DNA of 64,000 nt, taken from assembly GCA_023133485.1 (NCBI GenBank), contig JAGLWK010000038.1, positions 25,352 to 89,351 of the forward strand, in the 5' to 3' direction. The notes below the pieces were generated by a model that was not told where the DNA came from, searched no databases, and saw nothing but the letters and a program-made list of their open reading frames with translations. This stretch comes from Bacteroidales bacterium. Its GTDB lineage: Bacteria > Bacteroidota > Bacteroidia > Bacteroidales > B39-G9. The number at the start of each line of letters is the position of its first letter. The stretch's first letter is position 1. Shown here in pieces: positions 3,931-37,873 of this stretch. The translations under genes and the position numbers were made by a program.

Positions 3931-6900
3931 ATGAGCGAAGAGATATTAAAAGCCTTAATGCGACTGTTTGCAATTATTGCAAAACAGGATGATGGTGTTG
4001 AGAAAAATGAAATTGAATTTGTAAAAAATTTCCTTAAATCTCAACTTAATGATGAAGTTGTAAAAGAGTTTATTGCTCTCTTTTACAAACATGCCGATAT
4101 TGAGGATATTAATTTATATCTTAAAGAGCTTAAAGAAGAGGAAGATAGTGATGAAAAGAAAAAAAGAAAACTTACATCAGTTAAGGATTCGGTAAGAATT
4201 CTCGGAATTTGTAAAAAAATTAACAAAAAACTTACTCAACAACAAAAAGTTGTAGTATTAGTTCGTTTGTTTGAACTTGTTAATACCGACAAAAAGTTTA
4301 CCGAACAGCGAATGGCAATTATTAATACAGTTGCCGAAGTTTTTAATATTTCTACTAAAGAATTTAAAAGTACCGAAACTTTTATTATTAAAAACGAATT
4401 TAAAGAACTTGATGTTCAAAGTATTCTTATAGTTAACCATCAGGAAAATCTTTGCGAGCATTGTAAACATATTACAACCGAAGAACTTGACGGAAGTATA
4501 TTTATCCTTCATGTTCAAAGTGTTGATTTATATTTCTTAAGATATACAGGCAATCAGGATATATTTTTAAATGGACAAGGGGTTAATAACAGAAATATTT
4601 ATCTGTTTGCAAAAGGTAGTACAATTAAACTACCTAAAGGAAAACCCATATATTACAGCGATGTTGTTTCACATTATTTGGCAGACACAACCTTATCCAA
4701 AATATCTTATAATGTAAACAATGTTGAATTTACATTCCCAAATGGGGGAATTGGCTTAAGAGATATAAATTTATCCGAAGAACATGGCAAACTAGTTGGT
4801 ATTATGGGAGCTAGCGGTGCAGGTAAAACAACCTTATTGAATGTTCTTACGGGAAATGAAGCCCCATCAAATGGCGAAGTTCTAATTAACGGAGTAAACT
4901 TACACACAGAAAAAGAGAAAATTGAAGGTGTAATTGGATATATACCTCAAGATGACCTGTTAATTGAAGAACTTACAGTTTTTCAAAATTTGTATTATAA
5001 TGCTAAACTTTGTTTCGATAAAATTACCGAAGAAGAAATAACAAATCTTGTTAACAAAACTCTTTCAAATTTAGGACTGTTAGAAAAAAAGGAGCTTAAA
5101 GTTGGTTCTCCTCTTAATAAAACAATAAGTGGTGGTCAAAGAAAACGTTTGAATATTGCGTTGGAATTAATCAGGGAACCATCTATTTTATTTGTTGACG
5201 AACCTACCTCGGGTTTATCATCAAGAGATTCGGAAAATGTAATGGACCTTTTAAGAGAATTGGCTCTTAAAGGCAAATTGATTTTTGTTGTTATCCATCA
5301 ACCATCATCAGATATTTATAAAATGTTTGACAAGATGATAATACTTGATACCGGTGGATATCTAATATATTACGGAAATCCTGTTGAAGCAGTTAGTTAT
5401 TTTAAACGAATTGATGCTCAGGTAAATAGCGAAGTTGGTGAATGCCCGACCTGTGGTAATGTAAATCCCGAATTGATATTTAATATTGTTGATGCAAAAG
5501 TAGTTGACGAATTCGGAAAATACACCAATCACCGAAAAGTATCACCACTACAATGGGAAGAACACTATGATAAAAACATTGAAAAAGATGTTCATAAAGA
5601 TGTTAACGAAGAACCACCAAAATCATTAAATATTCCAAAATGGTTCAAACAGTTTAAGATATATACAATACGAGATTTTCTTTCAAAAGCAAGTAATAAA
5701 CAATATATAGCAATTAATTTTTTAGAAGCTCCTTTATTAGCATTTATTTTAGCTTCAATCATTCGTTATATTGCCGATCCTAATTCGAGAATTTATATAT
5801 TCAGGGAAAATGAAAATATTCCGCCATATGTATTTATGGCATTGATTGTAGCACTTTTTCTCGGATTTATGGTTGCTGCCGAAGAAATATTTCGCGACCG
5901 CAAAATTCTAAAAAGAGAAGCTTTTCTAAATCTTAGCAGGTCAAGTTATTTAGTGTCAAAAATATTGATACTATTTGTTATTTCTGCAATTCAATCATAC
6001 CTTTTCGTTATAGTAGGAAGTCTGATATTGGGTATTAAAGGATTAGACCTATACTACTGGATGGCTCTGTTTACTACATCTACTTTTGCAAATATGCTAA
6101 GCTTAAATATTTCTTCTGCATTTAATTCTGCTGTTACTATTTATATTTTAATTCCATTGCTAATAATTCCCCAGATGGCACTTGGTGGTGCAATGTTTAG
6201 TTTCGATAAACTAAACAAAATGATAGGTAGTGTTGATAAAGTACCATTAGTTGCCGAATTCATTACTGCAAGGTGGACTTATGAAGCTTTACTGGTTAAG
6301 CATTTCAAAGATAATGAATTTGAAAAAGATTTTTATGAATTAGAAAAACAAATTAGTATCTCTGATTTTAAACAAGTTTATTATTTACCCGAATTAACTG
6401 AAAAAGTTGATAAAATTATTAGCAGATTAAATAGTAAAGACGAAGAAATAATTGAAACAACTAAAAATGATTTCAAATTACTTAGAAACGAATTATCAAA
6501 AGAGATAAAAAGAGTTCCTGAAATAAAATTTGAACTTATTAACCAGCTTTATATAGATTCATTTTCAAATTTTGTTCAATATAATACAAATGATTATATA
6601 GAGCAATTAACGAGTTATTATGCAAATAAGTTTTCCGAAGCTGATTATAAAAAAGAAAAAATAATTGAATATTTAGATAATACACACCCCGGATATTATA
6701 ACAGTAAAAGAGCAAAATATCATAACGAAGCTGTTACTGATATTGTAAAAAAGGTATATGAAAAAAACAAAATTGTTGAATATAAAAATAATTTAATACA
6801 ACATGTTGATCCGATTTTTCAGGATCCGGAAGCTTCAAGTTTTTTAAATTTCAGATGTCATTTTTATGCTCCAAGAAAACAAATTTTTGGAAAATATTTT

Positions 6901-24859: not shown

Positions 24860-25951
24860 ATGAAGAAAAAAATATTTATAATATTAATATATATTTTATT
24901 ATCAATACATTCGTATTCACAAGCACCAAAATACAGTAATGAATTTCTTGCAATTGGTGTTGGTGCTAGATCGCTTGCAATGGCAAATTCAACGGTTGCT
25001 TGTGTTAATGATATAACTTCAACCTACTGGAATCCTTCAGGTTTATTATTAATTTCAGATGACTGGCAAATTGGAGCTATGCACTCTGAATATTTTGCAG
25101 GTATTGCCAAATACGATTATTTTTCAGGTGCATACAGGATTAACGAAGAACGTTCATTTGGATTTTCAGTAATTCGATTTGGTGTTGATGATATTCCTAA
25201 TACTCTTGAATTAATTGATAATGACGGAAATATTCGTTACGACCGCATAAAATCATTTTCGGTTGCTGATTATGCTTTACTGTTTTCTTATGCAAGCAAA
25301 TCAAAAATTGAAGGTTTAAGATACGGAGGAAATGTAAAAATAATCAGAAGAATAGCCGGAGAGTTTGCTTCTGCATGGGGATTTGGTTTTGATGTTTCGG
25401 CACAGTACGATATGGGAAAATGGAATTTTGGTGCTATTGGGCGTGATATTACTTCAACATTCAATGCATGGAGTTTCAATACATCTGAACTTGAAGATGT
25501 TTTTATATTAACAGGAAATGAAATTCCATCTAATTCACTTGAGATTACTTTACCAAAACTAATTCTCGGTGCTGCACGTAATTTTGATATTTCAGATAAG
25601 TTCAAAGCTATTGCAGAAATTGATATTGATATTACTTCCGACAGAAAAAGAAATGTTTTAATAAAATCAAACCCTTTTAGTATTGACCCGCACATTGGTG
25701 GTGAAATTGGATATAAAAATACAGTATTTTTCAGGGCAGGAATAGGTAATATTCAAAAAGAGCCTGATTTTGATGAAAAAAATTCATTAAGTTTTCAACC
25801 AAATATAGGTATTGGAATAAAAATAGACTATCTTATTATTGATTATGCCCTTACTGACGTAGGTGATGTGTCTATTGCTTTATATTCCCATATCTTTTCA
25901 TTAAAGTATTCTATTAATAAAAAAATAGTAGCAACAAATATTGATAGGTGA
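24860..25951 (+). CDS. PorV/PorQ-family outer-membrane beta-barrel protein
   Basis: Signal peptide, then FLAIGVGARSLAMANSTVACVNDITSTYWNPSGL, the family's N-terminal signature as I recall it. Beta-strand periodicity throughout. Confidence 0.55.
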   Translation: MKKKIFIILIYILLSIHSYSQAPKYSNEFLAIGVGARSLAMANSTVACVNDITSTYWNPSGLLLISDDWQIGAMHSEYFAGIAKYDYFSGAYRINEERSFGFSVIRFGVDDIPNTLELIDNDGNIRYDRIKSFSVADYALLFSYASKSKIEGLRYGGNVKIIRRIAGEFASAWGFGFDVSAQYDMGKWNFGAIGRDITSTFNAWSFNTSELEDVFILTGNEIPSNSLEITLPKLILGAARNFDISDKFKAIAEIDIDITSDRKRNVLIKSNPFSIDPHIGGEIGYKNTVFFRAGIGNIQKEPDFDEKNSLSFQPNIGIGIKIDYLIIDYALTDVGDVSIALYSHIFSLKYSINKKIVATNIDR

Positions 25952-25987: not shown

Positions 25988-27286
25988 CTAATGATTCTTT
26001 TTTATTAAGGATATTATTGGATTAAGTATTCTTTGTGATAATCTTAGGTTTTCAGTTATTATTTCGGCATTTCCAAACATTTCCTGGCTAAATTTCAATT
26101 GTTTTCCATAATTTGTTAATAAACCTTCAGGTAATTCTACTTCAACAAGATAAGTCTGATCATTGGGAACTAATGAAATTGAACTCACAATGCCTTTAAC
26201 CATACCATATTCCATATGCGGATAACTAATGAATTTAATATTAACAATTTGACCTGTTTTTACTTTACCCGACCCTGCTAATGGTAAATCTAACTTGCCA
26301 ATAATTTTAGTTGAATCCAAAGGTATAATTGTAAAAACATTTTCACCTGCTATAACATTTTGATTTACACTCCAATATCTGTTAAAAGTAATAATACCTT
26401 TTATAGGTGCTTTAAGCATATATTTTTGTTTCCATACAGATAATTGTGCTTTTAAATTATTGTATGACTCTGAAATAGCCATTTGCATTCTATTTTGTTC
26501 ATCGTTAAAATTTAACTCTAATTCTAATATTGATTGCTTATAATTTGCAATTTGGATTTTAGTATTAGCCAAAGTTGATTGTGAACCTTCAAAAGCATAT
26601 TGTTTTTGTAATAATACACTTTCTGAATTTTCAAATTCTACATCTGAAATTACTTTTTGTTCAAATAAATGTTTTGAGCGTTCAAAATCCTTTTTTGCTA
26701 TTTGATATTCTTTTTCAAGAATATTTCGTTGCAGGGAAAGATGATCGTAATACAAATGTGACATTGCTATCTGTTCATTAACCGATTCTATTTTTTTAGG
26801 ATAATAATTTAACTCAAACAAATTTTTATAATCAGTATAAGCTTTTAAAAATGAAGAAAAGAAAGATTGGATTTCGCCAAATTCAAAATCTTTTATCAGA
26901 AATTGTATTACTGAAGTATCGTATATGTTAATTAAAGGTTTTAACGAATCTAAAGTTTTATCAATAAAAATAATATCATTAAAATTAGCAGGATTCTCAA
27001 TAACAGCTAATAGCTGGTTGTATTGTACATTTTGAGAATCTTTAACAAAAAGATGTTCAATTCTGCCGTTTGTTTTTGCAACAAGTTCAGCAGGAGGATT
27101 TTCTGTTGTAATAATGATATTTGACTGGATTACATCAGGATATTTAAAAAACCAACTGCCAATTAGTAATACTATTATAACAACAAATATTGCACTTATC
27201 CCGGAACGAACCATCCATGAAGGAATATGCCCGAGTATTTCCTGTACTTCTTCGCTTCGTATTTCTATTTTATTTTTTTCTTCCAT
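25988..27286 (-). CDS. HlyD-family membrane fusion (adaptor) protein of the bacteriocin exporter
   Basis: N-terminal TM helix, long coiled-coil middle, C-terminal beta-barrel region. Downstream of the C39-ABC exporter on the same strand. Confidence 0.85.
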   Translation of the reverse strand: MEEKNKIEIRSEEVQEILGHIPSWMVRSGISAIFVVIIVLLIGSWFFKYPDVIQSNIIITTENPPAELVAKTNGRIEHLFVKDSQNVQYNQLLAVIENPANFNDIIFIDKTLDSLKPLINIYDTSVIQFLIKDFEFGEIQSFFSSFLKAYTDYKNLFELNYYPKKIESVNEQIAMSHLYYDHLSLQRNILEKEYQIAKKDFERSKHLFEQKVISDVEFENSESVLLQKQYAFEGSQSTLANTKIQIANYKQSILELELNFNDEQNRMQMAISESYNNLKAQLSVWKQKYMLKAPIKGIITFNRYWSVNQNVIAGENVFTIIPLDSTKIIGKLDLPLAGSGKVKTGQIVNIKFISYPHMEYGMVKGIVSSISLVPNDQTYLVEVELPEGLLTNYGKQLKFSQEMFGNAEIITENLRLSQRILNPIISLIKKNH

Positions 27287-27491: not shown

Positions 27492-27545
27492 ATAATTTGA
27501 CGCAGATATAACTGATAAATTATGATTTGTTATGATTTTTATATT
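27492..27545. repeat. 54-nt direct repeat, copy 2 (overlaps the GxxExxY gene stop and last codons)
   Basis: See 27285-27338. Confidence 0.85.
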
Positions 27546-27921
27546 CTTCTGTTAATACTCTTCTTTTATATTGCGGTTTTGTACCAAAATTTAATAATAA
27601 ACCTACTTCGATTTCTGTAGCTTTTAAATAATTTACTAACTGTACTTCATGTTCGGGTACAATATTTTCAACTGCTTTAAGTTCAATAATAACTTTGTTT
27701 TCAACAATAATATCAGCATAGTAATCTCCAACTAATTGTTCATTATAATAGACTCTTATTGGTTTCTGTTTTTCACAAATTAATCCAAAACTTTTCAATT
27801 CAATTAACATTGCATTTTCATAAACTTTTTCTAAAAAGCCATAACCTAATTGATTAAAAACATTAAAATAAGCTTTTAATATCTTGCTTGTTACATCTGT
27901 ATGTAAATAATTTGATTTCAT
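27520..27921 (-). CDS. GxxExxY family protein (PD-(D/E)xK nuclease-like fold)
   Basis: 133 aa. GYGFLEKVYENAM (GxxExxY), D..ADIIVENKVIIELK (D-x(n)-E-x-K), and QLVNYLKATEIEVGLLLNFG, all typical of this family. Confidence 0.85.
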   Translation of the reverse strand: MKSNYLHTDVTSKILKAYFNVFNQLGYGFLEKVYENAMLIELKSFGLICEKQKPIRVYYNEQLVGDYYADIIVENKVIIELKAVENIVPEHEVQLVNYLKATEIEVGLLLNFGTKPQYKRRVLTEEYKNHNKS

Positions 27922-27938
27922 TATTGATAATTTTTTAT

Positions 27939-28140
27939 GTTTAGACGCAAATAAACAATAATTATTTTACTTTATTTACAATAATAATCATAATTATCTT
28001 TAAAAATCAGTATATAATTTTAAGTTTGAAAAATTTTCTAAAAAGCTATAAACGAATTAATTAAAAATATTAAAAGATATCTTTAAAATAAAAACAAATC
28101 AGTGTAAATCATAAAAATCATAAAAAATCAGCGTCTAATT
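27939..28140. repeat. second inverted-repeat element of the GACGCA/AATCAGCGTC word family
   Basis: Left arm TTTAGACGCAAATAAACA begins at 27939. The right arm at 28097-28140 is almost identical to the right arm at 27409-27452. Confidence 0.65.
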
Positions 28141-28155
28141 TCCAAGTTCTAATTG
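28095..28155. repeat. 61-nt direct repeat, copy B (overlaps the true 3' end of the ABC exporter gene)
   Basis: See 27408-27468. Confidence 0.8.
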
Positions 28156-30402
28156 ATTTTTAACTAAGTTATAATATGCTCCTTTTTTGTTAGTTAATTC
28201 TTTATGAGTTCCCTGTTCAACAATTTTTCCTTTTTCTAATACTACTATTTGGTCGGCATTTTTAACAGTGCTTAACCTGTGAGCTACAATAACAACTGTT
28301 TTACCTTTAAAAAATTCGTCAAGGTTATTCATAATCACTTTTTCATTGTTTGCATCAAGTGAATTTGTAGCCTCATCAAAAAATAAATATTCAGGGTTTT
28401 TATAAATTGCACGGGCTATTAATATCCTTTGTTTTTGTCCCTGACTTAAACCATGTCCTTCCTGACCTATTTTTGTATTATACCCTAAAGGTAAACTGTC
28501 AATAAATTCTTGAATATTAGCAACTTTAACAGCATTTAACAATTTATTTTTATCTATAATTTCATCGCTAACTGCAATGTTTTTTGCAATAGTATCTGAA
28601 AAAATAAAACCATCCTGCATTACAGCACCACATTTTGCCCGCCAGCTACGATTACTGAAATTTTCAAGCCTTGTTTCACCGAGTTTTATTTCTCCTTTTA
28701 CAGGCGGATAAAAACCAAGCATAAGTTTAACAAGTGTAGTTTTTCCGCTTCCGCTTGTACCTACAATAGCAGTAATTTTACTTGCAGGAACCTCTATGTC
28801 TATGTTATCTATTACCATTTCGGAATGCGGACCTTCGTATTGAAAATGAAGATTTGATATGTTAATATTTTCATTTACAGGGATATCTGAAATTTTTGTA
28901 TCATCAATATCTTCTTCATCGTCTTTGTTGTGGATTTCGCCAAGACGTTCAAGACTTATTTTAGCATCCTGAGTTGACTGGAAAAAACCTAACATTTGGT
29001 CGATAGGACTATTTAACTGTCCGATAATATATTGTACCGCCAGCATCATACCAAGTGTCATATCACCACTTATTACTGAAGTTGCTGCTATTATTGTAAT
29101 AATTATGTTTTTTGTTTCGTTTACTAATACCGAACCTGCTTGCTGATATTGATTAAGAGATAAACTTTTAATATTTACTTTAAATAATTTTGCCTGAATA
29201 CTTTCCCATTCCCAGCGTTTCTGTTTTTCGCAGTTATTCAGCTTTATCTCCTGCATACCCGTAATTAATTGTATTATATTACTTTGGTTATCAGACATTT
29301 GTGCAAAACGTTTAAAATCTAAAGTCCTGCGTTTTTTCATGAAGATATTTATCCAAAGTATATATATTGTACTACCGATAATAAAAACAGCAAGTATTTT
29401 TAAGCTGTAAATTGCAAGCACGATACCAAAAATAACAAGGTTAACAAACGAAAATAAAATATTTAACGAGGATGAGGTAAGAAAACTTTCAATACGGCGG
29501 TGGTCTTGTATTCTTTGCATAAGGTCGCCAATCATCTTGGTATCGAAAAAACCTATGGGCAGTTTCATTAATTTTATCAGGAAATCTGAAATAAGCGATA
29601 TATTTATTCGGGTGCTTATATGCAAAAGTATCCAACTGCGAATAAAGTCAACGGTTGAACGGCTAATGGTTAATACAAGCTGGGCAATTAGTACAAGATA
29701 TATAAAATTCAGATTTTGATTATTAATACCAAAATCAACAACCGATTGTGTAAGAAAGGGGAAAATAAGTTGCAGCAAACTTCCAAGTAACATACCCAGC
29801 ATTAATTGAGTAATAAACTTACCATGTGGCTTTAGATATGAGAAAAGAAATTTAAAGCCTGACTTGTTTAATTTTTCATCGTCTGTTTTATAAAAATCGG
29901 GGGCAGGTTCTAATAAAAGACAAAGTCCTTTATCTTCTCCTTCTTTTTTTGTACTGAGCCAGCAATTGAGAAATTCTTTTTTTGTATATTTTACATGACC
30001 ATGTCCCGGGTCGGCAACATAAACATTACAATCGTCATTACGAACCGCAGGCGAAGTAATCTCTTTATTTGTATAGTATTGTTTCTGTTTTAACCCTCGC
30101 AATGACGAGCGTTTTTTTATTTTATAAACAACAACAAAATGATTTTGTTTCCAGTGAACAATACAAGGCAAAGGAGATTCGTTTTCAAGCTGCTCAAAAG
30201 TTATTCTAACTCCTTTTGTACGCATACCAATACTTTCGGCAGCATCGCTGATGCCAAGCATTGATACACCTTCGCGGGTAATAAAACTTCTGCCACGTAA
30301 AGTTTGTAAATTATATGTTTTCCCATAATACTTTGCTATCATGCGCAGGCAGGCGGGGCCGCAGTCCATGGCGTCTAATTGTTTGTAAAAGGGAAAGCTC
30401 AT
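28135..30402 (-). CDS. peptidase C39 domain-containing ABC transporter (double-glycine leader-cleaving bacteriocin/RiPP exporter)
   Basis: N-terminal C39 motif QLDAMDCGPACLRMI, with His in HWKQNHFVV and ADPGHG. Six-TM domain, Walker A GTSGSGKTT, signature LSQGQKQR, Walker B LFFDEATSALD-like (LFFDEATNSLD). Confidence 0.9.
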   Translation of the reverse strand: MSFPFYKQLDAMDCGPACLRMIAKYYGKTYNLQTLRGRSFITREGVSMLGISDAAESIGMRTKGVRITFEQLENESPLPCIVHWKQNHFVVVYKIKKRSSLRGLKQKQYYTNKEITSPAVRNDDCNVYVADPGHGHVKYTKKEFLNCWLSTKKEGEDKGLCLLLEPAPDFYKTDDEKLNKSGFKFLFSYLKPHGKFITQLMLGMLLGSLLQLIFPFLTQSVVDFGINNQNLNFIYLVLIAQLVLTISRSTVDFIRSWILLHISTRINISLISDFLIKLMKLPIGFFDTKMIGDLMQRIQDHRRIESFLTSSSLNILFSFVNLVIFGIVLAIYSLKILAVFIIGSTIYILWINIFMKKRRTLDFKRFAQMSDNQSNIIQLITGMQEIKLNNCEKQKRWEWESIQAKLFKVNIKSLSLNQYQQAGSVLVNETKNIIITIIAATSVISGDMTLGMMLAVQYIIGQLNSPIDQMLGFFQSTQDAKISLERLGEIHNKDDEEDIDDTKISDIPVNENINISNLHFQYEGPHSEMVIDNIDIEVPASKITAIVGTSGSGKTTLVKLMLGFYPPVKGEIKLGETRLENFSNRSWRAKCGAVMQDGFIFSDTIAKNIAVSDEIIDKNKLLNAVKVANIQEFIDSLPLGYNTKIGQEGHGLSQGQKQRILIARAIYKNPEYLFFDEATNSLDANNEKVIMNNLDEFFKGKTVVIVAHRLSTVKNADQIVVLEKGKIVEQGTHKELTNKKGAYYNLVKNQLELGN
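30033..30107. repeat. 75-nt palindromic element inserted in frame (25 codons) in the C39 peptidase domain
   Basis: Terminal inverted repeats CGTCATTACGA (30033-30043) and TCGCAATGACG (30097-30107). Locally GC-richer. Encodes SSLRGLKQKQYYTNKEITSPAVRND between the conserved VVVYKIKK and VYVADPGHG blocks. Confidence 0.6.
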
Positions 30403-31469
30403 TTTGTAGTAATTCCTTCTTTTATACTTTCTTCAACTGTTTTATATCCCTCTTGTCCTTTCCATTTAGCAATATATGGATTATAATTGCATTTGGCAGG
30501 TTGTGAATATATGTTTTTTGGGTCTTTAATAAAGACTCTGCAATCAGTACACATATATCTAAATTCACAGTCTTTACATACTTCAATTTTATCTTTATGA
30601 ATGTGCCATAAATCTTTAAATCCGGGTTTTTCAATTGCTTCTTTTAAAGTAATATCTTTTATATTGCCATAATCTTTTTCGATTGCTGGACAGTTTTTTA
30701 TGAAACCATTTTCATCTATACTTGCTTTGCGATTTAAACAAGTATTGTATTTTTTAGATTCTGAAAAAAATGTCAAATTAGTTGAAAAATATTCTGGTGA
30801 AACATATCCACAATGATCTTTGTCTATAATGTTTTTTAAAAAAATAATATCTGTTTTTTGATTTTTATTCATTGGTTTAATTAAAAAATCATTTGAAGAA
30901 AAAATAATTATTTTCTGTAGTCTAGGAAAACTATATGCAATTTCAACTAAATTATTCATAGAAGTTTCTTGTGAATATTTTAATACTAGTTCAATTGAGT
31001 TAATACTTGTTTTTGTAACTTCAAGTAAAATATCTTTTAATTTATGAAAGTTTATTGAAGTATAAAATCTTAGCTGAATATGCTTACAAAAAAGTTTATC
31101 TAACTGAAATAATACAGTTTTTAATATATCAATATTTGAATATTCAATTATAGCGTTTGTTATATATGAAGGAAACTGCCAATCAATTGATATATCAGGA
31201 AAATAGTCTAATTCATGTGCTTCACAAATAAATACTAATTTTTTGTCAATTAAATAATTAAAGTATTCATCAATTATTTCATTATGTTCATTACCAAAAG
31301 CTTTCTTTATTTCTTTAAGAGATTTATCTTTATATTCAGTTAAAATATCAAATAAAATATTTGGAATAAAAAAATATTCATGTTTTAAAAAATCTATAAT
31401 AAGACTGCGTCGCCATCCCTTTACATGTATGCAATCAGCATATAATTTATAAAAAATTTTCATTTTCAA
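30399..31469 (-). CDS. SPASM-domain peptide maturase lacking a canonical radical-SAM cluster motif
   Basis: C-terminal C244-x10-G-x4-C260, C298-x2-C301-x5-C307-x2-C310 and C327, seven Cys in SPASM spacing. The first 240 residues hold only 4 isolated Cys and no CxxxCxxC. Has a 4-nt stop/start overlap with the exporter gene. Confidence 0.8.
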   Translation of the reverse strand: MKMKIFYKLYADCIHVKGWRRSLIIDFLKHEYFFIPNILFDILTEYKDKSLKEIKKAFGNEHNEIIDEYFNYLIDKKLVFICEAHELDYFPDISIDWQFPSYITNAIIEYSNIDILKTVLFQLDKLFCKHIQLRFYTSINFHKLKDILLEVTKTSINSIELVLKYSQETSMNNLVEIAYSFPRLQKIIIFSSNDFLIKPMNKNQKTDIIFLKNIIDKDHCGYVSPEYFSTNLTFFSESKKYNTCLNRKASIDENGFIKNCPAIEKDYGNIKDITLKEAIEKPGFKDLWHIHKDKIEVCKDCEFRYMCTDCRVFIKDPKNIYSQPAKCNYNPYIAKWKGQEGYKTVEESIKEGITTK

Positions 31470-31641
31470 AATTAATGAATGTACATATCAGTTTATAGAA
31501 ATTTCTAATTTTGGAAACTTCACTTTGTTTTTTCTGGATTTTATCAAGCTTATTACTCAAATTATCACTACCTACACTTATTATATTATTAAATAATGGT
31601 GGCAGTATTGGATAATATGTTTTTTTATTTAATGTTTTCAT
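31447..31641 (-). CDS. small coupled ORF of unknown function (64 aa)
   Basis: The start overlaps the ATP-grasp stop by 4 nt and the end overlaps the SPASM gene start by 23 nt. It fills the otherwise empty gap exactly. No recognisable motif. Confidence 0.4.
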   Translation of the reverse strand: MKTLNKKTYYPILPPLFNNIISVGSDNLSNKLDKIQKKQSEVSKIRNFYKLICTFINFENENFL

Positions 31642-32606
31642 ATTAATTTCTCAGCAATTTTCATTTCCAGATTATAATTACATAATTCAGAAACATTTTG
31701 AAAAATACCTACAGGATTTACTTCTAAAAAAACAAACTCATTTGAAGTTGAATAAATCATATCAATACCTCCACAATCAATTTGCATTCGTTTCATTAAT
31801 ATACATAGCTTATTCCTAATATCTTCAGGCAACCTGAAAGGAACTGATCTAATATCAGTAATATCTCCTGCCCTATAATCAATAGAATTATTTTTATTTT
31901 CTTTTGAAAAAATAGCACAAGAATAGAACTCATTATCAATAAAAAATGTCCTTATTTCATGCTTTTTTTCTATTTTTTTTTGTATTAAAGTAGGGAAAAG
32001 CAAGCCTGATATTGAAGGTTCAGGAATATTTATGTACCCAGTTCGAGAAACATAATAAGCCTTTTTTTCGGTATAAGAAAATACTTCTTGTATAGGTTTT
32101 GTTATATATTTTTTATTTTTAGTATATTTTTTTAATACTTCTTTTTCAGTAACTACACTGGTATTTGGAATTGAAAGTCCGCACTCTTGTGCATATTCAA
32201 GTTGCATTAATTTATTAGGAAAACCTGTAAAAAAATTACCAACATGTTTTTTTATTTGTATTAAATGAAAAATATATTCTTTCAATATATACCACTCTCT
32301 ATTAAGAAAAGTTTCTATTTCTTTATCTATATTATCTAGGGGTATTTTAAAATATTCTCCAAATAAGTTAGGAAGAATTCCATTTCGTATCCAAACGGAA
32401 TATATATCAGATAATTTAAAATGGCTATTATTAACAATTAATTCTATATCAATGCCCACACGTTTTGAGAGAATATTTAAGTAACTAAAATTAAAATCAG
32501 TTGTAGGTGTTATTCTTATAATTTGTTTTCCTAAGAAATGAAGATGGTCAATAACACTATCAACGTCTGGGTCAAAATCTTTAGATATAATAAGAATAAT
32601 GCTCAT
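31638..32606 (-). CDS. ATP-grasp peptide maturase (RiPP macrolactone/lactam ligase-like)
   Basis: C-terminal ATP-grasp pattern HEIRTFFIDNEFYSCAIF...IDYRAGD...GGIDMIYSTSNEFVFLEVNPVGIF. The N-terminal ILIISKDFDPDVDSVIDHL pre-ATP-grasp region resembles that of RiPP ATP-grasp ligases. Confidence 0.75.
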   Translation of the reverse strand: MSIILIISKDFDPDVDSVIDHLHFLGKQIIRITPTTDFNFSYLNILSKRVGIDIELIVNNSHFKLSDIYSVWIRNGILPNLFGEYFKIPLDNIDKEIETFLNREWYILKEYIFHLIQIKKHVGNFFTGFPNKLMQLEYAQECGLSIPNTSVVTEKEVLKKYTKNKKYITKPIQEVFSYTEKKAYYVSRTGYINIPEPSISGLLFPTLIQKKIEKKHEIRTFFIDNEFYSCAIFSKENKNNSIDYRAGDITDIRSVPFRLPEDIRNKLCILMKRMQIDCGGIDMIYSTSNEFVFLEVNPVGIFQNVSELCNYNLEMKIAEKLI

Positions 32607-33823: not shown

Positions 33824-33910
33824 AATTTTATTGTATTTAAGGCATTATATAAATTTGTTTCTGTATTTTTTTCTAAATTATTTTTTTGAACTAAATTAAT
33901 GTTTTACATT

Positions 33911-33952
33911 AAAAAAAATACGGAAAACCAAAATTTATTCAATCTTCCGTAT
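33911..33952 (-). terminator. hairpin plus T-run just downstream of the precursor gene (terminator/attenuator)
   Basis: On the minus strand: ATACGGAA-19 nt loop-TTCCGTAT followed by TTTTTTTT. Lies 65 nt after the precursor stop and before the maturase genes. Confidence 0.5.
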
Positions 33953-34016: not shown

Positions 34017-34217
34017 TTAATGTCGCAGTCGCCAATTTGTGTATACAATTGCGTCATCACAAAGCCACTCATCAACAGTATAGCATTTCCCACCTGTACA
34101 ATAACCACCAGTCCCTGTAAAAATACATGCTCCTCCTTTTATACTTTTCAAATCAGAAAAACTTAGTTTTTCAAATTTTTTAAACGTATCACTGTTTAAA
34201 CTTTCTAATTTTTTCAT
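34017..34217 (-). CDS. RiPP precursor peptide with double-glycine leader
   Basis: The leader ...LSFSDLKSIKGG fits LSxxELxxIxGG. The 37-aa core is ACIFTGTGGYCTGGKCYTVDEWLCDDAIVYTNWRLRH, with 4 Cys, 5 Thr, 1 Lys and 4 Asp/Glu. It heads the maturase/exporter gene string. Confidence 0.8.
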   Translation of the reverse strand: MKKLESLNSDTFKKFEKLSFSDLKSIKGGACIFTGTGGYCTGGKCYTVDEWLCDDAIVYTNWRLRH

Positions 34218-34406
34218 AATAATAATAATTTAAATTAATAAATAGAAAATAATTGCTGGCAAATATAAATAATATTTTAATAAAACAACCCAATATTACA
34301 TTATAATATATTATTTGTTTATATATGTATTTATTATGACTATATGCACACTTTATATTACATATAAATAAATTAAAATGAAAAAAATAATACTCATTAT
34401 TGTAAT

Positions 34407-34775
34407 GTGGAATTACACATTGGTATAATAATAAAACAAAGAGTTGATGAATTAGGTATATCCAAAGCCGAATTTGCTCGCCGTATTAATACAACTTCTC
34501 AAAATATTTATGGAATTTTTAAAAGAAAATCAATTGACACTAATTTACTAATAAAAATATCTCAAGTATTAAATCATAATTTTTTTCAGTATTTTACTTC
34601 GTCAGTCATAAAAGTAAAGGAAGAAAAGGAGATGCTCAACTCTAATATTTCAATAGTTGATTTGTCTGATAAGATATCTAATATCGAGAATAAACTACAA
34701 ATAGCTCAAAAAGAAATTTCTTTAAAGGACAAGATTATTTTATTATTGGAAGAAAAAATTGGAAAATCTAAATAA
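34407..34775 (+). CDS. HTH-domain transcriptional regulator with C-terminal coiled coil
   Basis: IKQRVDELGISKAEFARRINTTSQNIYGIFKRKSI is an XRE/Cro-like HTH. GTG start. Divergent from the precursor gene. Confidence 0.6.
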   Translation: MELHIGIIIKQRVDELGISKAEFARRINTTSQNIYGIFKRKSIDTNLLIKISQVLNHNFFQYFTSSVIKVKEEKEMLNSNISIVDLSDKISNIENKLQIAQKEISLKDKIILLLEEKIGKSK

Positions 34776-34793: not shown

Positions 34794-35042
34794 GTGAAAT
34801 ATATCAGAGATAAAATAGGGATTAAGTTATTAGGAAAAAAAATCAGACAATTGCGAAAACAACAAAAAATTTCTCAAAGTCAATTAGCATTTGAATCGGG
34901 TATTCCCAGAAACCAAGTTGTAAGTATTGAGTTAGGAAAAATAAATACTGGAGTAAGTACTATTTTTGTTATTTCAAAAGCTTTAAATATCCACCCCAAA
35001 GAATTGTTAGATTTTGATTATCCTTTGGATTTTCAGGAATGA
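34794..35042 (+). CDS. XRE-family HTH transcriptional regulator
   Basis: LGKKIRQLRKQQKISQSQLAFESGIPRNQVVSIELGK...ISKALNIHPKELL is a canonical XRE HTH. GTG start in the ORF track. Confidence 0.75.
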   Translation: MKYIRDKIGIKLLGKKIRQLRKQQKISQSQLAFESGIPRNQVVSIELGKINTGVSTIFVISKALNIHPKELLDFDYPLDFQE

Positions 35043-36580: not shown

Positions 36581-37873
36581 CTAAATAGTTTTAATTAAAA
36601 AATAGTTTTTCTTACCTTTTTGAACAAGAATATATTTGTTATTTAACAGAAACTTTTTTGATATATTAATATCCAAATCAGTAACTTTTTCTTTATTTAT
36701 GCTTAATCCTCCTCCTGAAATTGTTCTTCTGAGTTCTCCTTTTGATGGGAATATGCTTGTTTTTTCTGTAAGTAAATCAAATATATTTATATTATTATTA
36801 ATTATTGAACCATCTATTTCAAATTGAGGAACACCTTCAAAAACAGAAAGAAAAGTTTCTTCATCAATTTTACCAAGCATTTCATGAGTACCCTTGCCAA
36901 ACAATATTTGAGATGCTTCAATGGCAGCATTAAGTTCTTTTTCGGAATGTACCATTATTGTTACTTCTTTTGCCAGTCGTTTTTGTAATATTCTGGCATG
37001 AGGAGCTTTGTTATGTTCGTTTATCAAATCGTCAATATCTTTTTTTGAAAGGATAGTAAATATTTTAACATATTTTTCTGCATCTTCATCTGAAACATTA
37101 AGCCAAAACTGATAAAATTTATAAGGAGAAGTCAATTTTGGGTCAAGCCATACATTTCCTTCCTCAGTTTTTCCGAATTTACCTCCATCAGATTTTGTTA
37201 TTAACGGGCATGTTAAAGCAAATGCTTCGCCTCCGGTTTTTCGGCGAATTAATTCAGTTCCTGTAATAATATTTCCCCATTGATCGGAACCACCCATTTG
37301 AAGTTTACAGTTTTTTTCTTTATATAAATAATAAAAATCAGTGCCTTGTACTAACTGATATGTAAATTCAGTAAATGACATTCCTGATTTTGAATCAGGA
37401 CTTAACCTTTTTTTTACTGAATCTTTAGCTATCATATAATTTACTGTAATATGTTTCCCGATATCTCTTATAAAGTCGAGGAAACTATATTCTTTCATCC
37501 AGTCGTAATTATTAACCATTTCAGCCTGGTTGTTTTTGCCTGAATTAAAGTCAAGGAATTTTGACAATTGTTTTTTTAAACATTCCTGATTATGTCTCAA
37601 TGTTTTTTCATCAAGCAGATTTCTTTCCTGTGATTTTCCTGAAGGATCACCAATCATTCCTGTTGCTCCTCCGATTAAAACTATAGGTTTATGCCCTGCA
37701 AGCTGAAAATGTTTTAACATCATAACAGAAACCAAATGTCCTATATGTAACGAATCGGCAGTAGGGTCAATACCAACATATGCAGATGTTAATTCTTTTT
37801 CAAGCAGTTCTTTTGTACCCGGCATAATATCGTGGATCATTCCACGCCATTTTAACTCTTTAATAAAATTCAT
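36581..37873 (-). CDS. tyrS: tyrosine--tRNA ligase
   Basis: HIGH motif (DSLHIGHL), KMSKS-like KFGKT, and a C-terminal S4 domain. 430 aa. Confidence 0.95.

Follow-up and report, generated by a model that had tools for sequence, protein, structure and literature searches.

A 64,000-nucleotide stretch of Bacteroidales DNA (GenBank assembly GCA_023133485.1, contig JAGLWK010000038.1; hereafter the window) carries on its minus strand a short open reading frame (ORF) with a double-glycine (GG) leader and a Cys-rich core. Judging from its sequence and surroundings, this ORF is probably the single precursor gene of a grasp-with-SPASM graspetide cluster, whose product would be a peptide made by the ribosome and modified after translation (RiPP). 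The components that define this family are found together around it: an ATP-grasp maturase of family TIGR04192, a SPASM-domain maturase of family TIGR04193, a GG precursor, a small protein of the LPL type, a protein of the 'cluster 23' type, and a C39-peptidase ABC exporter with an HlyD-family adaptor. An earlier note on this DNA, made from the letters alone, had read the ORF as a double-glycine RiPP precursor serving the adjacent ATP-grasp/SPASM pair. That central reading holds, both maturases scoring above the curated cutoffs of their families (Table 1).

The precursor gene and its leader

The gene encodes the leader MKKLESLNSDTFKKFEKLSFSDLKSIKGG, followed by the core ACIFTGTGGYCTGGKCYTVDEWLCDDAIVYTNWRLRH. 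The core contains four Cys and the segment DEWLCDD; in total it has five Thr, one Lys, three Asp and one Glu. The ORF had been described exactly, apart from its strand, which was not stated and is minus; the residue numbers given for the core (Thr5/7/12/18/31, Lys15, Asp20/Glu21/Asp25/Asp26 and Cys2/11/16/24) are right throughout and are kept here.

The start of the gene is unambiguous, since the frame is open for just 4 codons 5′ of the ATG. ORF length by itself is weak evidence, because further, spurious ORFs of 60–70 aa occur in the window at its GC content of 28%. A profile of the leader, built from small ORFs adjoining homologous ATP-grasp genes, was therefore of more use when run against all open frames of the window: the precursor ORF is retrieved with E = 4.6e-13, the runner-up with E = 0.53. 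From this gap we conclude that the ORF is real and that it is the sole precursor in the 64 kb, so that the claim of only one precursor gene extends to the entire window. As a candidate for a second precursor, the 64-aa ORF between the ATP-grasp and SPASM genes was rejected, being of the LPL type and devoid of a GG leader.

The precursor had previously been annotated as hypothetical protein KAT68_03290 in the metagenome-assembled genome (MAG) Bacteroidales bacterium GCA_030631205.1, and the identical sequence is found in a second, independent assembly (Logan). Agreement of two independent assemblies, the profile gap, the canonical strand and first place in an intact operon, and a terminator-like hairpin right after the gene all argue against an ORF that is open by chance or is left over from a decayed gene without expression. 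Such an origin would fit the shortness of the gene, the lack of a close homologue for gauging purifying selection, and an upstream promoter-like motif that is no commoner in the window than by chance; we hold it to be extremely improbable. The motif in question is the match TATATTTG to TAnnTTTG, the consensus of the Bacteroidetes −7 promoter motif. Its position is compatible with a promoter, but TAnnTTTG is not enriched in the window (109 matches found, 131 expected by chance), and for this reason the site was given no weight.

Related loci, designated below by L numbers where they have to be told apart, were collected using an alignment of ATP-grasp homologues. Eighty come from species-representative genomes, in which 382 relatives were detected, and another 80 are metagenomic; contigs of the closest relatives were added. 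In all, 168 ATP-grasp homologues were found. Searching the small ORFs of up to 171 related loci with phmmer and jackhmmer, we found 43 distinct precursors sharing this leader. All 43 lie on the strand of the ATP-grasp gene, most of them immediately upstream of it. The leader of the window precursor is close to their consensus, MKKLESLKSSKFKKLEKEEISDLNSIKGG, and the GG terminus is present in 34 of the 35 leaders that align to the end. The alignment with homologous small ORFs for which the earlier note had called thus shows a conserved leader and a conserved GG site. In the window the leader ends in L(-12) S F S D L(-7) K S I(-4) K G G. Ahead of the GG, positions −4, −7 and −12 are hydrophobic; the resemblance to the LSxxELxxIxGG-type pattern (here LSFSDLKSIKGG) had been correctly recognized. 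At locus L121 (3066–4069), four tandem precursors with two Cys each stand before a DUF6624-like gene and an ATP-grasp gene, and their cleavage sites are variants (G-S, G-A or G-G followed by R).

Curated precursor models all score below their cutoffs. TIGR04149 (GG_sam_targ_CFB) gives 21.6 bits against a cutoff of 25, almost wholly from the leader (residues 1–44), and PF14406 (Bacteroid_pep) 14.5 bits against 25, essentially from the leader only. TIGR04139 gives 15.7 bits against 40, over residues 1–62, and TIGR01847 comes just under its cutoff, with 13.2 against 15.7 bits. The leader is therefore of like type to those of the Bacteroidetes GG-leader families TIGR04149, TIGR04139 and PF14406 (MKKL...GG), whereas the core fits none of these models.

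With such a leader, the product might also be an unmodified, disulfide-stabilized bacteriocin of class-II type that uses the exporter only, the ATP-grasp and SPASM proteins acting on nothing or elsewhere. The near-cutoff TIGR01847 score (13.2 vs 15.7 bits) attests to the fit with a double-glycine signal, four Cys allow two disulfides, and no other substrate-defining core motif is statistically established. However, the leader type is specific to the region upstream of TIGR04192-type genes, as the 43 same-strand precursors illustrate, and the precursor is the sole candidate substrate in the 64 kb. The operon is moreover contiguous and on one strand, with overlapping genes, and Ser/Thr occurs together with Asp/Glu in 41 of 42 related cores. 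Altogether, an unmodified bacteriocin is very unlikely, and a substrate of the ATP-grasp ligase is the reading that we follow.

Core residues and the proposed linkage

The core is a singleton, without detectable relative in public protein sets. Only the precursor itself came back from 5.8 billion protein clusters in a word-indexed search, and again from 1.84 billion representatives with full HMMER; when phmmer was given just the core, no small ORF in the first 80 related loci matched.

A short pattern is common to the precursors of seven other related loci: [ST]G near core positions 5–6, then E[WYF]x(2-5)DD. When the window core is aligned by MAFFT with six other precursors, its Thr5-Gly6, Glu21-Trp22 and Asp25-Asp26 coincide with their [ST]G, E[WYF] and DD. 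The window row, IFTGTGGY...DEWLCDDA, is matched by IYSGCGPS...DEWMYIYDDD in L003, CYSGQGPT...TEWCLVYDDG in L090 and HYTGTRS...EEYAYVNDDG in L094; L112, L005 and L014 are similar. The pattern, seen by eye as well as with MAFFT, is shared above all where a homologue of the 406-aa protein described below directly follows the precursor. In shuffles of the window core the composite pattern has a frequency of 4.4e-4, and among 7,199 small ORFs it is almost confined to GG-leader peptides, including one in L054, which was not among the precursors that defined it. Comparable cores, ...YNDDG or ...YDDG, are listed in the published branch-5 catalogue. Thr5-Gly6 and Glu21-Trp22...Asp25-Asp26 are thus probable motif positions of the family, as judged from these alignments. 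The L054 peptide (5980–6186) itself has a GG leader and the segment SAEFDCVDDD, and lies downstream of the ATP-grasp gene, at the slot usual for the LPL-type protein.

The ATP-grasp protein keeps every invariant column of its family, including the E295/N297 FLEVNPVG block. It would build side-chain ω-ester (or amide) macrocycles, joining core Thr/Ser (or Lys) to Asp/Glu. The best candidate linkage is that of Thr5 with Asp25 or Asp26, residues that fall in the [ST]G and DD columns when related precursors are aligned.

Several points weigh against the assignment or its details. Built from the six other cores, a leave-one-out profile fails to retrieve the window core (E > 50), and we therefore claim a motif only, not homology of the cores. 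Of the conservation of core positions that had been anticipated, the part concerning Thr5-Gly6 and E-W...D-D stands with a qualification, in that these align in a subset of precursors; the profile, in missing the window core, does not bear it out. The spacer from Trp to DD is 2 residues in the window vs 3 to 5 (counted by eye) in the six references, and the composite pattern was loosened after the window sequence had been seen. When pairwise Smith-Waterman scores were set against shuffles in 14 comparisons, only L003 (p ~0.004) and L036 (p ~0.008) stood out, and the core of L083, the locus with the nearest enzyme, reached z = 0.8. The nearest relative of the ATP-grasp protein is 46% identical to it, so its substrate rules may differ. 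The searchable literature, outside of which most subscription journals lie, yielded neither a characterized product of a grasp-with-SPASM system nor experimental evidence that any member is transcribed, translated or modified. Finally, both the linkage of Thr5 to Asp25/26 and the fate of the Cys as disulfides are inferred only.

Cysteines and the SPASM protein

Cys residues vary widely in number across the family. Among 42 distinct related cores there are none in 17, one in 13, two in 7, three in 3 and four in 2. The SPASM gene is nevertheless still present in 16 of the 17 loci with Cys-free cores. In the core closest by score, that of L036 (GSWTNQGSDYISGGYYYTAKENY...), a gapless alignment has all four Cys replaced. 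The L036 precursor ranks within the top two or three in similarity to that of the window, and first by phmmer. Conservation of the Cys positions, on which the earlier note had counted, is therefore not upheld.

CxxxCxxC occurs within the first 200 aa in none of 139 non-redundant SPASM homologues (window and loci L003–L171), and Pfam Radical_SAM has no match in the window protein at E ≤ 0.01. Because both the motif and the domain are missing, the canonical thioether chemistry of radical S-adenosylmethionine (SAM) enzymes should not be available to it. What is conserved are eight Cys of the SPASM region (C220, C244, C260, C298, C301, C307, C310 and C327), amounting to two auxiliary Fe-S cluster motifs, and further C13 and C128. 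The family profile has no relative among PDB sequences, and a single-sequence AlphaFold model of the protein (pLDDT 42.8) was too poor for a fold search. Makarova et al. (PMC8939145) call this protein a radical SAM enzyme from the SPASM family; the NCBIfam label is narrower, 'SPASM domain peptide maturase' (TIGR04193). Where thioether or disulfide formation had been suggested for the four Cys, the thioether half thus finds no support as canonical radical-SAM chemistry, which is likewise unsupported as a trait of the family.

The same data bear on a different division of labour, in which Cys-to-carbon thioethers, installed by the SPASM protein on Cys2/11/16/24 in the style of sactipeptides or ranthipeptides, are the key modification and the ATP-grasp ligase is secondary. 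SPASM domains do usually go with radical-SAM enzymes that form thioethers (PMC8939145), the count of four Cys is reached by only 2 of the 42 related cores, and the precursor bears a weak likeness to TIGR04149, 'rSAM-modified RiPP' (21.6 bits), and to TIGR04139 (15.7 bits). Yet both scores are below cutoff, that of TIGR04149 coming nearly all from the leader; the 0/139 count and the missing Radical_SAM match leave no source for a canonical 5′-deoxyadenosyl radical; and the Cys-free cores beside SPASM genes, together with the loss of all four Cys in L036, do not agree with a Cys-centred pathway. We consider it quite unlikely that thioethers are the key modification.

Keeping to macrocyclization by the ATP-grasp ligase, the SPASM Fe-S protein would add a second modification, other than by canonical radical-SAM chemistry and with no need of substrate Cys. 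The four lineage-specific Cys would most likely oxidize to disulfides outside the cytoplasm. A bolder idea, on balance an unlikely one, is that the SPASM protein catalyses a new, SAM-independent redox modification of the ATP-grasp-cyclized peptide. Here, the core being unusually rich in Cys, this might give a compact hybrid scaffold of ester macrocycle and Cys-derived cross-link, of a kind not yet described, with a trans-acting LPL-type partner taking over the role played by leader-motif recognition in microviridins.

The operon and its relation to known systems

The precursor heads a co-directional, partly overlapping series of minus-strand genes (Table 1). The order precursor, DUF6624-like gene, ATP-grasp, LPL and SPASM is also that of the nearest relatives, L083 and L086. 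An intrinsic-terminator-like hairpin is located 65 nt past the precursor stop and ~95 nt ahead of the next gene. It is the one terminator-like site found in the region, where 0.2 are expected, and its minimum free energy is −20.9 kcal/mol (z = −2.75). The hairpin probably attenuates read-through, so that the precursor transcript exceeds that of the enzymes, as is the usual arrangement.

Table 1 Features of the precursor locus in window coordinates.
Feature	Position	Strand	Description
Precursor peptide gene	34217..34017	−	66 codons + stop; ATG 34217-34215, TAA 34019-34017
Leader codons	34217..34131	−	29 aa, KGG at end
Core codons	34130..34020	−	37 aa; stop at 34019..34017
TAnnTTTG match	34260..34267	−	43 nt 5′ of precursor ATG
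Intrinsic-terminator-like hairpin	33952..33918 (33908..33952 with the U8 tract)	−	15-pair stem, 5-nt loop, U8 tract
DUF6624-like TPR accessory protein, 406 aa	32603..33823	−	N-terminal hydrophobic signal/anchor, C-terminal domain
ATP-grasp peptide maturase	31638..32606	−	TIGR04192, 246.6 bits (cutoff 230), full length 4-321
'LPL'-type small protein, 64 aa	31447..31641	−	Y..LPPLF ... FYKLICTFINFENENFL; overlaps SPASM gene, immediately upstream
SPASM-domain peptide maturase	30399..31469	−	TIGR04193, 324.3 bits (cutoff 175)
C39-peptidase ABC exporter (PCAT type)	28135..30402	−	Pfam Peptidase_C39 (1.3e-32), ABC_membrane, ABC_tran
GxxExxY / PD-(D/E)XK_3 gene	27520..27921	−	Family matches; between exporter and HlyD genes
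HlyD-family periplasmic adaptor	25988..27286	−	TIGR01843 9.5e-30 (below cutoff), Pfam HlyD_3
Two XRE-type helix-turn-helix (HTH) genes	34407..34775 and 34794..35042	+	Pfam HTH_3, HTH_19; divergent from precursor

The 406-aa protein has ~70 homologues in related loci (tblastn, jackhmmer), and His206 and Arg317 are invariant over 36 aligned ones. Eight of these 36 family members match Pfam DUF6624 (best E 2e-20), and TPR repeats are the sole matches of the family profile among PDB sequences. An AlphaFold2 model from a 4-sequence alignment (pLDDT 53.6) was too poor for a fold search. The protein is a divergent DUF6624 relative and probably belongs to the 'cluster 23' family of Makarova 2022, an identity that we draw from the published description: a signal peptide, a conserved His and Arg, and a possible extracellular enzyme (PMC8939145). 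Carter et al. 2026 regard DUF6624 as a possible undiscovered biosynthetic enzyme. The N-terminal segment of the window protein ends in ...ISFSHGQY, compared with the lipobox ...LSACHANY in the nearest relatives; the lipidation Cys is seemingly lost. At L170 (1891–6141), two DUF6624-like paralogues flank the ATP-grasp, LPL and SPASM genes, and no leader-type precursor is recognizable upstream.

The 64-aa protein is a putative partner or chaperone. No curated model searched matches it, and its assignment to the LPL type was made by motif and position. Its C-terminal block is FYK.I..LINFENE.F. Homologues in the same position are found in L083-87, L170 and L171 (5 distinct relatives); by sequence they are restricted to the nearest subclade, and 8 of the 9 matches directly precede the SPASM gene. 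The LPL family and its place before the SPASM gene have been described, with a chaperone or a mimic of the leader motif proposed as its role (PMC8939145).

The exporter includes the C39 peptidase domain that the earlier note had presupposed. Its N-terminal domain aligns with LahT150 (6mpz, 5.5e-19), a double-glycine protease of solved structure, and with PCAT1; the motifs of the catalytic residues are kept, DCGPAC for Cys and NHFVV for His. The predicted cut is behind Gly28-Gly29, in the course of export. Unlike the LahT150/PCAT1 type, the domain has an insertion of ~28 residues between the His and Asp regions. Homologues of the HlyD adaptor occur in 47 related loci. An outer-membrane duct dedicated to this exporter was not recognized among the operon genes; just past the HlyD gene, on the opposite strand, is a gene for a PorV-like outer-membrane protein (24860–25951, plus strand). 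The GxxExxY / PD-(D/E)XK_3 gene is probably not part of the pathway. A 61%-identical copy lies right after the ABC gene in L036 (8000–8446); the association could be a recurrent one, or the gene a small insertion of mobile origin.

Upstream, the XRE-type HTH genes are candidate local regulators; in other related loci a different HTH gene (~95–115 aa) is upstream of the precursor. A mobile-element origin of the locus was rejected: the region is free of tRNA genes, its GC content shows no anomaly, and it is flanked by housekeeping genes (tyrosyl-tRNA synthetase (TyrRS), NUDIX, SmpB). The TyrRS gene (36581–37873, minus strand) is intact in the window, as it is in the Logan contig, and codes for 430 aa. 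In the NCBI MAG copy (L001 6344–7637) it is split into two ORFs of 159 and 266 aa, probably by an assembly frameshift.

From the gene content, leader family, GG site and motif positions observed in the sequence, we infer the steps of maturation as follows. The precursor would be transcribed in excess, with the hairpin damping read-through. In the cytoplasm its leader would dock it on the ATP-grasp ligase, perhaps together with the LPL-type protein of 64 aa, for macrocyclization and then modification by the SPASM protein. The C39 domain of the ABC exporter would cut at the GG site in the course of HlyD-aided export. Outside the cytoplasm, where the disulfides may form, the exported DUF6624-like protein would bind or act on the peptide, in processing or immunity. 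Like other graspetides, the peptide probably serves in antagonism between bacteria or in the inhibition of proteases.

Grasp-with-SPASM systems (group 14, branch 5) are widespread in Bacteroidota, as the 382 relatives among species-representative genomes attest. The present locus is compact and complete, with one precursor, an exporter that is intact and the full set of accessory genes, and could hence reasonably be chosen for reconstitution in a heterologous host. The four Cys of its core would in themselves allow a test of whether Cys is a target of the SPASM partner. The existing catalogue is left unchanged: the NCBI pipeline already names the enzymes in this MAG, and hypervariable singleton cores have been published as the rule in this family. 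The locus is of value mainly as a clean case, with a single precursor, in which to test a RiPP family that seems to be uncharacterized.

Compared with known systems, the locus resembles those of sactipeptides and ranthipeptides in that a Cys-containing core adjoins the gene of a SPASM-domain protein. It differs from them in that this protein has no CxxxCxxC and that Cys is dispensable across the precursors of the family. An LSxxELxxIxGG-type leader is shared with double-glycine bacteriocins and lanthipeptides that PCAT/AMS transporters process (LahT150, PCAT1, ComA), but the cargo is here predicted to be modified by an ATP-grasp enzyme.

In microviridin biosynthesis (MvdC/MvdD) the ATP-grasp enzymes are homologous to that of the window (TIGR04185 5.5e-33, TIGR04184 6.3e-29). 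By comparison, macrocyclization through side-chain esters or amides would be expected here as well, in a ribosomally made core with many Thr/Ser and Asp/Glu. A microviridin-type cluster was nevertheless ruled out, the scores being far under the cutoffs of the MvdC and MvdD models (114 vs 425 bits and 101 vs 475 bits). Microviridin precursors carry the leader motif PFFARFL and the core motif TxKxPSD; on inspection, neither is present in the window precursor. Unlike in microviridins, the leader would be removed by a C39-ABC exporter, and a SPASM Fe-S protein is predicted to take part in addition.

The closest match is the grasp-with-spasm system (TIGR04192 with TIGR04193), 'branch 5' of Makarova 2022 (PMC8939145), both of whose marker enzymes are present here. 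Branch 5 comprises 190 loci, is Bacteroidetes-specific and has hypervariable precursors; also in common are a same-strand upstream precursor with an MKKL GG leader, the Bacteroidota host, and a hypervariable core, often with Cys. Placement in 'group 14' of the Mitchell laboratory's RODEO classification (PMC13097080) is probable, by its defining SPASM co-occurrence alone. A 2026 preprint describes the same operon on integrative and conjugative elements of Porphyromonas gingivalis, its precursor often uncalled. Within the family the window stands apart by its ATP-grasp protein (≤46% identity), a core without detectable homologue, four Cys (the top of the family range), a shorter spacer from the aromatic residue to DD, and a DUF6624-like protein without the lipobox Cys of its nearest relatives. 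The locus is a divergent addition to a catalogued, hypervariable RiPP family.

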